A stretch of 64,000 nucleotides of DNA from Candidatus Goldiibacteriota bacterium (GTDB lineage: Bacteria; Oederibacteriota; PGYV01), in the NCBI GenBank assembly GCA_016937715.1, contig JAFGWA010000050.1, forward strand, positions 9,311-73,310. The letters run 5' to 3'. Position numbers and translations under genes: made by a program. Each line of letters starts with the position of its first letter. Within the stretch, counting starts at the first letter, position 1. The notes under the pieces are model-generated. The model worked only from the letters and a program-made list of their open reading frames with translations, was not told where the DNA came from and searched no databases. This document shows, one piece after another, positions 17,292-24,161 of the stretch.

Positions 17292-17717
17292 CTATTCGCT
17301 GTAATCGTTTATAAACTTTAATACTTCAGATTTTATTGAATCGCGAATATCCCGGATTTTAGCCAGTTTTTCTTCTTCAGTACCTTCGGCTTTTGACGGG
17401 TCATTAAACGGCCAGTGCAGTTTTTCGCCTGTTCCCGGGAATATCGGGCAGCGCTCCGCGGCTTCCGCGTCGCACACAGCCACAACATAGGAGAATAATT
17501 TTCCCTGTTTATAAAAATCAAACACGCTTTTGGTTTTATTGCCGGATATGTCTATGCCGTCTTCCGCCATAACTTTTACAACAAGGGGATTTAAAACGCC
17601 CGGTTCCAGCCCCGCGCTTTCAGCCGTGAACTTTTCCCCTCCGAATTTATTCAAATAAGCCTCTGCCATCTGCGAACGCGCGCTGTTGTGGATACAGATA
17701 AAAAGCACTTTTTCCAT
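17292..17717 (-). CDS. arsC: Arsenate reductase, LMW-PTP/thioredoxin-coupled type
   Basis: N-terminal [13 protein letters not shown]-loop (CX5R), downstream Cys residues, 141 aa. Confidence 0.85.
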
Positions 17718-17800
17718 AATTTCCTCCTGCTTTAAATTTAATTTTATATTATTTTCTATCAGGGCCGTTAAGCGTTAATGAACTTATTGTTAATTTTCAG

Positions 17801-18511
17801 TTAAAAGAACGCGCCATATAAAAGGTATATGGCAGCCGCAATCACAAGAACTCCGCACACTTTTTTAATAAAAATAACCGCTTTTGATTTTTTGCCCCAG
17901 CGCAGATATTTTTCCACAAGTTCCGTGAATGTTCCGGCAAGGACTATTACACCGCAGTGTCCCGCGGCGTAAAGCGTGACAAGGCTTACAGAGTACAAAA
18001 GATTTTTTGAAGCCTCATTAAACGCCACTGCCAGCATCGGCGCCATATAGGCAAACGTGCAGGGACCAAGCGCCACTCCAAAAACCAATCCTAAAATAAA
18101 AGCGGCAATGTATCCCCTTTTTTCAAACTTAGGCTGGCTTATATTGTTCAGGAAAGGAAATGAAATTATTTCAAGCAGATAAAGCCCCACAATAATAAAT
18201 ACAACGGCAACAAAAACATTTCCCCACACTCCGGTATTTCCAAGCATTTTCCCCATAAGCCCGGTTATAACCCCGATTACCGCGATAGTTATAAGAATAC
18301 CCATAGAGAATAAAAAAGAAAGAAAGAACGCCTTCTTGACCGTAATTTTATCGCCCTGTGACCCTACAAAACCCACTATAAGAGGGATGCTTGCAAGGTG
18401 GCACGGGCTTAAAAGTATGCTTAGTATCCCCCAGATAAAAGAAGCTGTAAGCGCGATTGCCGGCGCTTTATCAAGCGCAAGGGTCAGCGATGAAAACAGT
18501 TCCTGAATCAT
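17801..18511 (-). CDS. ccdA: Cytochrome c-type biogenesis / thiol:disulfide electron transporter CcdA (DsbD-like membrane protein)
   Basis: Six TM helices with the two conserved Cys motifs LSPCHL and GPCTF. Confidence 0.8.
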   Translation of the reverse strand: MIQELFSSLTLALDKAPAIALTASFIWGILSILLSPCHLASIPLIVGFVGSQGDKITVKKAFFLSFLFSMGILITIAVIGVITGLMGKMLGNTGVWGNVFVAVVFIIVGLYLLEIISFPFLNNISQPKFEKRGYIAAFILGLVFGVALGPCTFAYMAPMLAVAFNEASKNLLYSVSLVTLYAAGHCGVIVLAGTFTELVEKYLRWGKKSKAVIFIKKVCGVLVIAAAIYLLYGAFF

Positions 18512-18888
18512 TTTACTTCCTCCGCGGCAATTGCCTTTTTTATCACTTCATTAAGCGCGCCTTTGTTGAATTCAGAAGCGCTTGCGCTGTATATCACCGC
18601 GCCTGTTTTATCCGTAAATACCAGATAGGGGAAATATCCCATCTTATATTTATCCATTACTTTAACCGTTTCACTGTTTTTTGCTTTATCATAGACATCA
18701 AGGACGATAACGCCCTGATAATTATTAACTGCCATAAATTTTTTCATTTCCGTTTCCATATTCACACACCTGTTTTTAACGCACGTGCACGCGCTGGAAT
18801 CAACCGCCAGCACAACTGTCCCGGTTTTTACAGAAGCGCATCCGGCAAATAAAGCGGCCGTTATAATTAACGCGATTTTTCTAATCAA
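18508..18888 (-). CDS. Thioredoxin-fold lipoprotein (lipobox AGC; CTC / C-x-x-x-C motifs)
   Basis: Lipoprotein signal LFAGCAS, SSACTCVKNRC. Overlaps ccdA by 4 nt and the upstream thioredoxin gene by 8 nt. Confidence 0.4.
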   Translation of the reverse strand: MIRKIALIITAALFAGCASVKTGTVVLAVDSSACTCVKNRCVNMETEMKKFMAVNNYQGVIVLDVYDKAKNSETVKVMDKYKMGYFPYLVFTDKTGAVIYSASASEFNKGALNEVIKKAIAAEEVK

Positions 18889-19318
18889 CTTTTACGCCTC
18901 CCTGTTTTAATACAGGCAGTATCTGTTCCAGGGGATAAAAGCCCGTGTGCCTGTGAAATTCTTTCCCGTTTTCATCCAGGAATATCTGCGTGGGAATTCC
19001 CCGTATGCCGTACTGCTTCGCGTACGGCTCGCCCGCGGGCGTCCACACATCATGAAACACCACCTTTACATCTTTTCCGTATTTCTTCTCTATTTCTTCC
19101 ATTACCGGCACCATCATCTTGCACGGTACGCATTTAACAGAGCCAAGTTCAATAAATGTGACTTTTACTTTTGATACCGGGTTTGCCGGTGCGGCTTTAA
19201 CCGCAGCTTCAGTTTCCTTGGGTTCAACCTTATCTGTACCAACAGCTTTAGGCCTGCTTCCCGCGTAAACCGAAACCGCAAACATAAACATTAAAATTAC
19301 AACAGCTGCTTTTTTCAT
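18881..19318 (-). CDS. Secreted thioredoxin (C-V-P-C active site) with signal peptide. Start moved to MKKAAVVIL, preceded by RBS AAGGAG.
   Basis: SVKCVPCKMM motif in a thioredoxin fold. Signal peptide then an Ala/Pro/Lys-rich linker. Confidence 0.75.
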   Translation of the reverse strand: MKKAAVVILMFMFAVSVYAGSRPKAVGTDKVEPKETEAAVKAAPANPVSKVKVTFIELGSVKCVPCKMMVPVMEEIEKKYGKDVKVVFHDVWTPAGEPYAKQYGIRGIPTQIFLDENGKEFHRHTGFYPLEQILPVLKQGGVKVD

Positions 19319-19328
19319 TTTTTTCTCC

Positions 19329-21611: not shown

Positions 21612-22735
21612 GCCGTCACCCTTATTATCATCTCCGTAATTATAAGCAGCAGCGATATTACACCGCCGGCTATGATAAACGGAATGGAATTTTTCACTTC
21701 AGTTTTAACGCCGGAAATGGACGTAAATGTTGAACACCCTGTATAGTTCATGGCGGCAAAGGATGAAACCGCGGTTATTATTAATACCGCCGCGGGAAGG
21801 TGCAGCGCCATATACGGACCGCTTAACACGCCGGAAAACAAAACAAAAAATACCGCGCCTGTAATTCCGGCGTAAAGGCCTTTAACTGAAAAATACCTGC
21901 CCGGAAGCACCGGTAATAATAACGAAAATAAAACAGAACCTGAAATCATTCCTGTCAATGCGGCGTACAGATAAAACATGCCTCGGTATACAGCGTCATA
22001 CAGCACAAATCCCCTGCTTCCTATTCCTGATAAAACTATTACCGCTATCATGGGCCAGAACAATTTGTCCATTGCCAGTATCAGCTCCAGCCACGAAACT
22101 TCAAGCCTGCGGCCGGCATTAAAACTTACTTCCCTCATTTTCTCATCCGTTTTCATATTGTTATCAAGAAAATATTTTATGTCATACGCTTCCACCGGCC
22201 CAAATACAGCCTTGTATCCGCAAAGCTCTTTTACCTTATGAGCGGCCACTCCCGGCGCTGACAGCTGCGGTAATATTACCGTATCATGTTTAACAAGCCG
22301 TCCAAGATTAGACCTTAATATCTCCTTGGACACTTCTTCGGCGCTGAAAGTGCCTTTACCCGCGGAACACCACACATTAACTCCTTTGGTGTCAACCGCA
22401 AGTATCCAGCTATTAATACCTTTAAGCTCCCTTTTTAATACATCAAATGACAGTTTGTAATTCGCGGAAACAAACACAGGTGAATTTTCATCCGGCGTGT
22501 TGACAGCGTAAACGCCGGGCTCAACCGCATAGCCCATGCGTTTAAAACCAAGCCTTACCATAGCCTCGCCCATACGCTCCGCGGAGCCCCACCGGGTGTT
22601 CACCCTTGGTATTTCAAGGCCGCCTGATGTTACCGTGCCGTCTGATTCAGGCTCTTCATACTGAATCTGTGTATTTATCCCGCCGCAGCACGGCTGTTTG
22701 GCTTTTGAATTATCCTTCGCGGGATTATTTTTCAT
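21608..22735 (-). CDS. hgcA: HgcA-like corrinoid protein: cytoplasmic CFeSP-type cobalamin-binding domain with cap-helix motif NVWCSAGKG, plus a C-terminal 5-TM domain
   Basis: PGVYAV...[16 protein letters not shown]...[21 protein letters not shown]...[13 protein letters not shown]...[15 protein letters not shown] matches the HgcA corrinoid-domain consensus as I recall it. Five hydrophobic helices in the last ~170 aa. The canonical motif is NVWCAAGK; here Ser replaces the first Ala. Confidence 0.75.
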
Positions 22736-23771
22736 TAAAACCTCTCTTTAATTTAAACGCCGCGTTTACAAGAAGCACAAGCACGGGAACTTCCACAAGC
22801 GGCCCTATTATCGTGGCAAAAGCCTGGTGTGAACTTATGCCAAAAAGCCCTATAGCCACGGCAATTGCAAGTTCAAAATCATTGCTTGCGGCAGTAAAGG
22901 ATACAGCCACGGTCTGTTTGTATGTGGCGCCCAGTTTTTTTGAAATTATAAAGGTGCCAAACCACATAATAAGAAAATATATTATCATCGGAACCGCCAC
23001 AATAAAAACATCCAGCGGCTGTTTTACTATGTATTCGCCTTTCATTGAAAACATCACTACTATTGTAAAAAGCAGCGCCGCCAGAGTTACAGGGCTTATC
23101 TTTGGTATGAATTTTTCTTCATACCATTGTTCGCCTTTTAAGCGCAGCAGCAGATACCTTGTCATAATACCCGCAAAAAACGGGATTCCAAGATATACAA
23201 GCACAACTTTAGCGGATTCCCACATGGATATATTTATTTCAAGCCCTTTTGTCAGACCGAATAACGGAAGCAGGAAAGAGATAAAAAACCAGATGTATAC
23301 CGCGTAAAAAAGCACCTGCGCCAGCGCGTTAAAAGCCACCAGCCCTATTCCAAGCTCCCTGTCGCCGCGGGCAAGGTCGTTCCAAACTATAACCATGGCA
23401 ATGCAGCGCGCAAGGCCTACAAGAATTACGCCTATCATGTATTCGGGATGGTCGCGCAGGAAAAGCACCGCAAGGCCAAACATCACCAAAGGCCCTACAA
23501 CCCAGTTCTGCACAAGGGAAAAAGCCAGCAGCTTCTTATTGCTGAACACTTTACCCATCTTTTCATATTTAACTTTTGCAAGGGGCGGATACATCATAAG
23601 AATAAGCCCTATCGCTATAGGGATTGAAGTGGAGCCTATCTGCATTGAGGATATAAATTCGGAAGCCTGCGGCCAGACAAAACCCAGAACAATACCCGCG
23701 GCTATTGCAAGAAATATCCATAAGGTCAGATACCTGTCTACAAAAGAAAGTTTTATTTTTTCTTCCATCAT
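22725..23771 (-). CDS. acr3: Arsenite efflux transporter, ACR3 family
   Basis: 10-TM BART-superfamily protein with [12 protein letters not shown] and typical Acr3 helices. Overlaps hgcA by 11 nt. Starts 1 nt after the arsR stop. Confidence 0.9.
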
Positions 23772-23772
23772 T

Positions 23773-24111
23773 TCACCTCTTTATCCCGCAGCACACCTGC
23801 GGGGATTTTATGGAGCCGGCGGTTTTTTGGGCGTCAGTATCGGCGGCAAGTTCTTTTTTTATGATGTTATTTATCCCTTTGGTTTTTGGATTGTTATTAA
23901 CCGAGTAGTAAACCCACAGCCCCTTTTTTGTATCAGTGACAACACCCGCGTTTTTTAAAACATTAAGGGCTTTTGACACCGCGGCCTGCTTCATGTTAAG
24001 GGCGTTTAATATCTGGCAGACGCACAGCCCGCCTTTCGCGTTCTTGGAGAGCAGAAGCTTGACAATTTTAAGCCTTGTTTCATCCGCGTAAGCTTTGAAT
24101 ATTTTTACCAT
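23773..24111 (-). CDS. arsR: ArsR/SmtB-family metalloregulatory repressor
   Basis: HTH with [12 protein letters not shown] and the metal-binding CVCQI motif. First gene of the operon. Confidence 0.85.
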
Positions 24112-24121
24112 TATTTCCCTC

Positions 24122-24161
24122 CTGTATTACTATATGAACATTTGGTAATATAGTTATACAG
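24122..24161. promoter_or_regulatory. Imperfect inverted repeat CTGTATTACTATAT-12 bp-ATATAGTTATACAG immediately upstream of arsR; candidate ArsR operator within the operon promoter
   Basis: Read directly. 13/14 positions are complementary and it sits 10-50 bp upstream of the arsR start codon. Confidence 0.4.

Follow-up and report, generated by a model that had tools for sequence, protein, structure and literature searches.

An hgcAB pair within a predicted arsenite-sensing ars operon of a Candidatus Goldbacteria genome

We analyzed a 64-kb stretch of DNA from a Candidatus Goldbacteria genome (the window) that carries hgcAB, the mercury-methylation gene pair for the corrinoid protein HgcA and the ferredoxin HgcB. 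The minus strand carries eleven genes, head to tail, from an intrinsic terminator (24232-24201) down to about position 17292; the first is arsR and the last arsC (Table 1). The analysis confirmed that hgcAB is placed inside what reads as an arsenite-sensing ars operon (minus strand, 24181-17292), and the terminator, which belongs to the upstream lipoprotein gene, marks the 5' boundary of the predicted transcription unit. A preliminary description of this DNA had already given the gene order from arsR to arsC, and all eleven genes were found where it had placed them.

Table 1. Features of the hgcAB-containing ars cassette, listed in the direction of the predicted transcription
Feature	Coordinates	Strand	Evidence
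Intrinsic terminator of upstream lipoprotein gene	24201..24232	-	14-bp stem, 7 G-C pairs, then T run
Promoter and ArsR operator-like palindrome	24119..24181	-	TTGACT, TATAAC, inverted repeat
arsR, ArsR/SmtB repressor	23773..24111	-	NF033788, 85.1 bits (cut-off 55)
acr3, arsenite efflux permease	22725..23771	-	TIGR00832, 448.5 bits (cut-off 282.8)
hgcA, corrinoid protein	21608..22735	-	NF040863, 377.2 bits (cut-off 275)
hgcB, 2x[4Fe-4S] ferredoxin	21345..21611	-	NF040864, 94.8 bits (cut-off 99); motifs
A+T-rich 75-nt spacer between hgcB and permease gene	21270..21344	-	AGGAG upstream of permease ATG
ArsP-family (PF03773/ArsP_1) permease, 'cluster 1' type	20109..21269	-	PF03773, 259.5 bits
DGC-domain protein, both ends cysteine-rich	19663..20094	-	PF08859, 91 bits
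ArsE/MTH895-type small thioredoxin-like protein (CPKC), cytoplasmic	19329..19562	-	TIGR00412, 104.9 bits (cut-off 62)
Secreted thioredoxin, signal peptide and CVPC motif	18881..19318	-	PF00085 and PF13098; N-terminus read
Lipoprotein, lipobox LFAGC, faint thioredoxin-like signal	18508..18888	-	PF13098, E = 0.0019, below cut-off
CcdA/DsbD-type membrane thiol-disulfide transporter, two PC motifs	17801..18511	-	PF02683, 60.7 bits
arsC, low-molecular-weight phosphatase-type (putatively thioredoxin-coupled) arsenate reductase	17292..17717	-	PF01451, 53.9 bits

The junctions at the head of the cassette are tight. The start of hgcA lies inside acr3 (an 11-nt overlap), and hgcA and hgcB share a 4-nt ATGA overlap. 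Both overlaps had been described before, together with a third of 1 nt between arsR and acr3, but this last junction proved to be a 1-nt gap. The 75-nt gap between hgcB and the permease gene was read as previously described; the remaining spacers are, in order, 14, about 100 (DGC/arsE), 10, -8, -4 and 83 nt (ccdA/arsC), which adds two further gaps to the one after hgcB.

The identity of HgcA was evaluated with profile models. The protein passes the HgcA model, residues 42-370 aligning to positions 1-324 of the 325 in the profile, and fails NF003195, the gamma-subunit model for the acetyl-CoA pathway's corrinoid iron-sulfur protein (CFeSP; AcsC/CdhE), on which it reaches 83.1 of the required 306 bits and matches the last 127 profile positions only. 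It is identical to an HgcA annotated in a metagenome-assembled genome of Candidatus Goldbacteria. A generic CFeSP was the competing identity named in advance for 21608-22735, and it was therefore rejected. The corrinoid-binding domain (PF03599) matches residues 69-187. The cap helix, NVWCSAGK, carries the cobalt-ligating cysteine, and an alignment of 26 HgcA sequences shows no change at residue 120, V121, W122, C123, A125 or G126. The serine variant of this helix also occurs in the HgcA proteins P0008, P0010 and P0050 (P and L numbers denote proteins and loci throughout). The hydrophobic C-terminal half, a five-helix membrane domain, could be aligned throughout. At the N-terminus we observed a PCCGG motif; an N-terminal CC motif of HgcA has been described by Haft (bioRxiv 10.1101/2022.07.06.499078), and its presence fixes the start codon of hgcA at 22735.

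HgcB falls just below the cut-off of its model, which is nevertheless its best match by far, the next family reaching 57.6 bits. It had been recognized earlier from CIECGAC and a C-terminal CCC, and the translation indeed contains both cluster motifs (CTGCTMCVKVC and CIECGACALNC), the GPGC motif (GPGCAAA) and a terminal ACCC.

A promoter could be read upstream of arsR, with TTGACT at 24181-24176, a 17-nt spacer and TATAAC at 24158-24153. An inverted repeat with 17-nt arms (24164-24148 and 24135-24119) spans the -10 box and extends to the ribosome-binding site. The arms have no other copy at up to 2 mismatches in the 64-kb window (0.19 expected), and the hairpin folds much better than shuffled sequence (z = -3.9). 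When the window was aligned with three related loci that have different upstream genes, all four proved to share an unchanged TTGAC and an unchanged 27-nt core, TATATTACCAAATGTTCATATAGTAAT (24152-24126). Since the flanks diverge while these elements do not, we regard them as a phylogenetic footprint of the operator. The single promoter/operator-like repeat of the preliminary description is thus real, unique in the window and conserved. ArsR itself has a CVC pair in the DNA-binding helix region, before the recognition helix, and a C-terminal CC (CCG), both conserved in orthologues. The CVC pair occupies the position of the As(III) site of the classical ArsR (the R773 protein).

We also looked for signals that could separate hgcAB from the permease gene. 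In the 75-nt spacer there was no terminator hairpin (minimum free energy -11.5 kcal/mol, z = +2.2), and the search with the repeat arms across the 64 kb gave no second ArsR operator there. A promoter scan returned a weak match in the spacer (CTGACT-16-TATTAT); such matches in the region were no more numerous than in shuffled sequence. The corresponding gap is 25 nt in the related locus L087 and 73 nt in L083. With one conserved operator, no operator copy or hairpin in the spacer, and a spacer of 25 nt in L087, co-transcription is the most economical reading, and the genes are predicted to be transcribed together from one arsenite-controlled promoter. We consider the operon and its proposed regulation quite probable.

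In L083 a second ArsR-family gene (11089-11460; present also in L084 and L085), which is without the first cysteine of the CVC pair, lies between the DGC gene and arsE, and fills the place of the window's spacer of about 100 nt. This may point to separate control of the cassette's distal half. Rfam and tRNA scans of the whole window gave no match, no tRNA gene and no cobalamin riboswitch.

The close clade was reached by exact-protein look-ups, and the contigs of the nearest HgcA relatives (53-64% identity) were traced. All of them have arsR-acr3-hgcA-hgcB, with acr3/hgcA overlaps of 4-14 nt, and those with enough sequence go on with arsP-(DGC)-(second arsR)-arsE-thioredoxin-lipoprotein-ccdA-arsC; the lipoprotein gene is kept in both L083 and L087. 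The upstream flanks differ among the relatives, and the downstream flank is common to the window and L083 only. Profile searches, which had been suggested earlier, gave passing scores for the HgcA, ArsR and Acr3 of the window. The embedding of hgcAB between acr3 and an ArsP-family permease gene, with tight coupling to acr3, is supported by the retention of the cassette, the acr3/hgcA overlap and the operator in relatives. A more distant locus, L090 (45% HgcA identity), has the order arsR-acr3-rhodanese-hgcA-hgcB-CDF-arsE-thioredoxin-ccdA-arsP. Its two insertions are a rhodanese-domain gene between acr3 and hgcA (9559-9972) and a gene for a ZitB-like cation diffusion facilitator (CDF) metal exporter between hgcB and arsE (11487-12431). 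Of the loci examined, none outside the Goldbacteria-like clade had the acr3-hgcAB-arsP order except L090, which has it with these insertions.

The proteins of the cassette have not diverged to the same extent. Between the window and L087, identity is 85% for ArsR, 77% for Acr3, 53% for HgcA, 61% for HgcB, 83% for ArsP, 91% for ArsE, 90% for CcdA and 92% for ArsC. HgcB remains at 61-65% across the comparisons with L087 and L083. The greater divergence of HgcA and HgcB could reflect relaxed constraint, fast adaptation or cassette exchange. When hgcA was compared with P0002 (L089), a mosaic became apparent: residues ~211-270, where the membrane domain begins, show 90-100% identity (81-86% in DNA), against 53-76% (62-71% in DNA) for the corrinoid-binding domain. 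This pattern points to recombination near the domain boundary, within the cassette.

To place the window among other hgcA loci, we took a census of 160 of them, 80 from species-representative genomes and 80 from metagenomes, using the window proteins together with ArsM, ArsF and ArsG as queries. The loci came from genome and metagenome contig scans in which the HgcA relatives among the matches listed were at most 47% identical, and the set was treated as roughly unbiased; counts of ArsR are lower bounds, since single-sequence phmmer is insensitive for this family. At least one ars structural gene lay within 5 kb of hgcA in 23 of the 160 loci, and in 16 of the 68 that had at least 3 kb on both flanks; a further 15 loci had an ArsR-family gene only. 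At least five gene orders were seen among the ars-linked loci. These included arsC-hgcA-hgcB-acr3 in several Bacteroidales, arsR-hgcA-hgcB-acr3-arsC in a metagenome-assembled genome (MAG) of Bacillota, arsE/F/G-hgcA in a Planctomycetaceae MAG, and also hgcAB-arsR-acr3 and arsC-arsR-acr3-arsC-hgcAB. A bona fide arsM stands directly upstream of hgcA in four loci (L097, L126, L153 and L080), and in L171, L086 and L054 hgcA adjoins, or is fused to, components of the arsEFG type (ArsG 277 bits against 200, ArsF 97-110 against 60). By our own rough estimate, made without a computed control, chance adjacency of acr3 to hgcA would be well under 1% at one or two acr3 copies per genome. As several gene orders occur across phyla, the full embedding of hgcAB in ars operons is recurrent and not unique to the window. 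Two methyltransferase genes that follow hgcB in L178 were also considered as arsM; their Pfam families fit a cmoA/cmoB pair, phmmer with the ArsM domain found no match there, and they were set aside.

The most interesting result came from outside the window: queries with HgcA relatives uncovered proteins whose HgcA part carries an ars protein, namely ArsM, ArsE, ArsC or a PF03773 permease, as an in-frame N-terminal fusion. The ArsM-HgcA protein P0183 (628 aa; L170, L172 and L173) has an ArsM part at 341 bits against a cut-off of 263 and a full HgcA part at 460 bits. The ArsM part keeps the four conserved As(III)-binding/catalytic cysteines of ArsM/AS3MT (CC, GLGCGNP, SNCVINL and YAGCVAGA). Its 90% cluster comprises 19 sequences from JGI, ENA and Logan assemblies, and of the 15 members listed, no fewer than 12 have the full length of 627-636 aa. 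Relatives in this lineage are named Candidatus Deferrimicrobium. Unfused relatives of P0183 (80-97% identity) have the same flanks (a MazE-like gene, hgcB, MsrA and MsrB) and no arsM, indicating that hgcA acquired arsM at its 5' end by an in-frame insertion. In the Deferrimicrobium-like loci L172, L174 and L175, a small MazE/AbrB-like gene precedes hgcA, and MsrA and MsrB follow on the opposite strand. This gene fits the 'toxin-antitoxin-like' putative regulator that Zhang et al. (PMC10349881) describe upstream of hgcA.

Fusions of ArsE to HgcA occur in at least two lineages, plus two partial proteins. P0008 (L086) lies in the context arsR-arsF-dsbD-acr3-[arsE-hgcA], and P0148 (L171; 5 cluster members) lies downstream of permease-arsE-DGC-DGC-arsF-arsF-arsG. 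ArsC-HgcA (P0451; L176 and L177) was found on contigs of 222 kb and 152 kb from two assemblies, its ArsC part scoring 124 bits against a cut-off of 174. The permease-HgcA protein P0362 (L178) is a singleton whose permease part passes the SO_0444 model (364 bits against 300). Two weak candidates, MIP-like-HgcA and ArsN2-like GNAT-HgcA (P0322 and P0330), have partner scores below cut-off and occur as singletons or pairs. Full-text literature searches, to which most subscription journals are closed, gave no paper describing fusions of HgcA to ArsM, ArsE, ArsC or a PF03773 permease. The fusions support a real functional tie of HgcA to arsenic, and they render the arsenic hypothesis directly testable.

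The permease had been described as the organoarsenical permease ArsP. This holds at the family level, since the protein matches PF03773 and carries HVLLCLVPAFLIAG and LAV-CSC, the ArsP 'cluster 1' motifs as defined in PMC4435449; it is at most a candidate orthologue of the characterized Campylobacter jejuni ArsP, which acts on methylarsenite and roxarsone. No NCBIfam equivalog cut-off was reached, the nearest models being SO_0444 (Cu/Zn efflux; 110.6 bits against 300) and SaoE (103.1 against 325). In the survey of ArsP, 24 of 49 genes co-occur with Acr3 (PMC4435449).

Among the distal genes, two secreted thioredoxins had been described. Only one of them (19318-18881) has a signal peptide; the other, the ArsE-like protein, begins with MQVAVLGTGCPKC, is without a signal peptide and is predicted to be cytoplasmic (the gene is called as 77 aa in L001). 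The CcdA-like protein was considered as a possible ArsG and ruled out, as it scores 47 bits on the ArsG model against a cut-off of 200 and has both of the PC motifs typical of CcdA. ArsC scores 123.6 bits on the equivalog model TIGR02691 (cut-off 174.3), and its CX5R loop (CIHNSARS) and C-x7-C pair are present.

The cassette is flanked by ordinary chromosomal genes. One side (25536-28478, minus strand) codes for a GH9 cellulase-like protein of 980 aa whose C-terminal domain is CIA30-like. The opposite side (11472-16513) has genes for a Gfo/Idh/MocA oxidoreductase, a PAS histidine kinase and a CDF cation exporter, and the oxidoreductase and CDF genes are also found downstream of the cassette in L083. 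Just downstream of arsC, in a non-coding stretch of ~410 nt, lies an element of ~205 nt (17055-17259) with 36-nt terminal inverted repeats (89% complementary). Its fold reaches -81.7 kcal/mol (z = -5.5), and no further copy of its arm was found in the window. Possible identities are a miniature inverted-repeat element and a long terminator hairpin.

Taken together, the explanation that we find best is a single eleven-gene unit derepressed by As(III), in which HgcAB acts on an arsenical; as a whole, we put it at slightly less than an even chance. Without arsenite, ArsR would sit on the palindrome over the -10 box and the ribosome-binding site, and arsenite would release it, so that all products of the cassette are made together. 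ArsC would reduce As(V) to As(III), feeding the system, and Acr3 would export As(III). HgcA and HgcB would be translated by coupling from the acr3 message, and the ArsP-family permease would be made along with ArsE and the DGC protein, its usual partners. The CcdA protein could, with the secreted thioredoxin and the lipoprotein, form a relay that keeps periplasmic thiols reduced. As the most likely reaction we propose that HgcB reduces the HgcA corrinoid. By the chemistry accepted for the family, HgcA transfers its methyl group as a carbanion to an electrophilic soft centre bound by thiols; since thiol-bound As(III) is such a centre, we infer that it may be the acceptor. The methyl group of methyl-Co(III) would then pass to As(III), for which the vicinal cysteines of HgcA (the N-terminal CC) and of HgcB (the terminal CCC) would be the ligands, and the methylarsenite formed would leave through the ArsP-family permease. 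An arsenical as the HgcAB substrate in this setting is hypothesized, and we judge it possible but less likely than not.

Several observations weigh against this explanation. The operon and its arsenite control in this organism are predicted from sequence, and the spacers of 75, about 100 and 83 nt have room for internal promoters, the first of them containing the weak promoter-like match. HgcA and HgcB are the least conserved proteins (53% and 61%, against 77-92% for the flanking ars genes, window versus L087), which is unexpected for the key enzyme of an operon. The permease is a 'cluster 1' ArsP with an extra conserved cysteine, and the substrate of this cluster has never been assayed (PMC4435449). 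The ArsM-HgcA fusion could equally be read as a device for loading the corrinoid from S-adenosylmethionine. About three quarters of the hgcAB loci with adequate flanks have no ars gene nearby. In the only direct test that we found, Pseudodesulfovibrio mercurii ND132 cultures given As(III) or As(V) formed no detectable mono- or dimethylarsenicals, the only product being one unidentified species, presumed to be a thioarsenical, with a mass balance of 70-80%; loss of hgcAB raised the sensitivity to As(V) but not to As(III) (10.1101/2022.10.17.512643). On the other side, hgcA genes preceded by arsR had lower hgcA/gyrB transcript ratios in a lake metatranscriptome (PMC11984097), and we count this in favor of the explanation.

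It has also to be considered that HgcAB could be under ArsR without any arsenic chemistry, methylating Hg(II) or another soft metal, or serving a corrinoid or one-carbon task, as part of a general response to thiol-reactive metals and metalloids. HgcA and HgcB retain all the motifs known to be necessary for mercury methylation, ND132 gave no methylarsenicals, and most hgcAB loci are without ars genes. The permease might then export a metal or methylmercury instead of an arsenical: its nearest models are SO_0444 and SaoE, the HgcA-fused permease passes the SO_0444 cut-off, and a ZitB-like CDF transporter comes right after hgcB in L090. However, the regulator has a CVC site of the As(III) type, the neighbors are overwhelmingly of ars families and not mer, czc or cop, and the fusion partners ArsM and ArsC are arsenic-specific, the ArsM domain keeping its four cysteines. 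We consider this co-regulation without arsenic chemistry unlikely, yet deserving of serious attention.

Another way to account for the locus is that HgcAB takes organoarsenicals as substrates, running in reverse or carrying out a different reaction. Co(I) could take the methyl group from methylarsenite (anaerobic demethylation), or the pair could aid in processing aromatic arsenicals along the lines of ArsE/ArsF/ArsG, and the products would leave through the permease and Acr3. This would fit the absence of methylarsenicals in ND132, the hgcA genes beside or fused to arsEFG-type components (L171, L086 and L054), and the ArsE and ArsP-family permease genes that follow hgcB directly in the window. 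But the window has neither ArsF nor a true ArsG, no corrinoid protein is known to cleave C-As bonds, and the Cys-ligated cap helix of HgcA is expected to favor methyl donation; such a role seems improbable to us. Even less probable, and by our judgement very remote, is that horizontal transfer or recombination placed hgcAB in an ars operon, where the pair has stayed as a neutral passenger with no functional link. The far greater divergence of hgcAB than of its flanks and the mosaic with P0002, which indicates recombination within the cassette, would suit such an origin. The arrangement and its start-stop overlaps, however, survive down to 53% HgcA identity and in different genomic contexts, independent arrangements are present in Bacteroidales, Bacillota, Planctomycetota, Actinomycetota and Desulfobacterota, and in-frame fusions in many sequences would be hard to maintain without selection.

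The preliminary description had gone further and tied the native role of HgcAB to arsenic, for example through a methylated arsenical exported by ArsP, and we find this partly supported. The conservation of the cassette and operator, the ars neighbors in several phyla and the in-frame fusions speak for this; the majority of hgcAB loci without ars genes and the lack of methylarsenicals in ND132 speak against it. As about three quarters of the loci have no ars gene, the general native role of HgcAB cannot be read from this operon. A broader proposal is that HgcAB, at least in many lineages, is part of arsenic metabolism, a corrinoid methyl-transfer module taking As(III) from ArsC/ArsE/ArsM-type partners and passing an arsenical, methylated or modified in some other way, to ArsP/Acr3-type exporters, with mercury methylation as a side reaction. 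On present evidence we would call this rather unlikely. The physiological function of HgcAB is a long-standing question, and it governs the prediction of methylmercury production in nature. If HgcAB belongs to a pathway induced by arsenite, arsenic exposure would control hgcAB expression, and hence methylmercury formation, in organisms with such operons, and ArsM would not be the only route of arsenic transformation, a second one being anaerobic and dependent on a corrinoid. On the broader proposal, the ArsM-, ArsE-, ArsC- and permease-HgcA proteins would be 'Rosetta-stone' records of the partnership. The cassette, with its canonical As(III)-type ArsR, one conserved operator and coupling to acr3, and the ArsM-HgcA protein offer compact systems, amenable to cloning, for a direct test of the idea.

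The linkage of hgcAB to ars genes is already published, and the window is a new, unusually complete case of it. That hgcAB is often found near arsR had been taken as established, and both the idea of an arsenic link and this kind of neighborhood are indeed published (PMC7438021, 10.1101/2022.10.17.512643, PMC11984097). In Fig. 6 of McDaniel et al. 2020 (PMC7438021) hgcAB is flanked by acr3, arsC, arsM and arsR, and in Fig. 4c of Peterson et al. 2025 (PMC11984097) by arsR, acr3 and arsC; Zhang et al. 2023 (PMC10349881) report ars genes for 4 of 35 contigs that carry hgcAB. The name 'Goldbacteria' is absent from the text of PMC7438021. In these neighborhoods, which come from diverse uncultured methylators, arsenite efflux, arsenate reductase and ArsR genes flank hgcAB as they do in the window. 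The start-stop coupling to acr3, the downstream ArsP/ArsE/DGC/CcdA module and the conserved operator go beyond the flanking genes shown in those figures and passages.

The closest characterized system is that of ND132, for which the arsenic link of hgcAB was put forward explicitly by Gionfriddo et al. (bioRxiv 10.1101/2022.10.17.512643; AEM 2023). There ArsR2 regulates hgcAB, arsenic raises hgcAB transcription, and arsenic induces each of three separate units, arsR2-hgcAB, arsR3-acr3-arsC and arsR5-arsP-arsE-DGC. Control by an ArsR-family repressor encoded just upstream of hgcAB resembles the ArsR-type control predicted for the window. However, no other ars gene stands beside hgcAB in ND132 and the metal site of ArsR2 is described as atypical, whereas the window has a canonical CVC pair and places hgcAB between acr3 and arsP. 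The window thus looks like the three arsenic-induced units of ND132 (A, B and C) concatenated in one cluster under one canonical ArsR, and the permease-DGC-ArsE trio of operon C (arsR5-arsP-arsE-DGC) is the same that follows hgcB here.

Other known systems resemble the window in part. AcsC/CdhE has the corrinoid-binding domain in common with the HgcA of the window, but the latter has a Cys-bearing cap helix and the five-helix membrane domain, and there are no acs or cdh genes nearby. The arsEFG system (in NCBIfam, a thioredoxin-like ArsE, the nitroreductase subunit ArsF and the efflux permease ArsG) adjoins hgcA in L054, L086 and L171; in the window the CcdA-thioredoxin-lipoprotein relay stands in place of ArsF and ArsG. 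The Campylobacter jejuni ars operon (arsP-arsR-arsC-acr3) and other Acr3- and ArsP-containing operons (PMC4435449) have ArsR control, Acr3, ArsC and an ArsP-family permease as in the window. These operons are without the corrinoid/ferredoxin pair, whereas the window combines that pair with a permease of the 'cluster 1' type.

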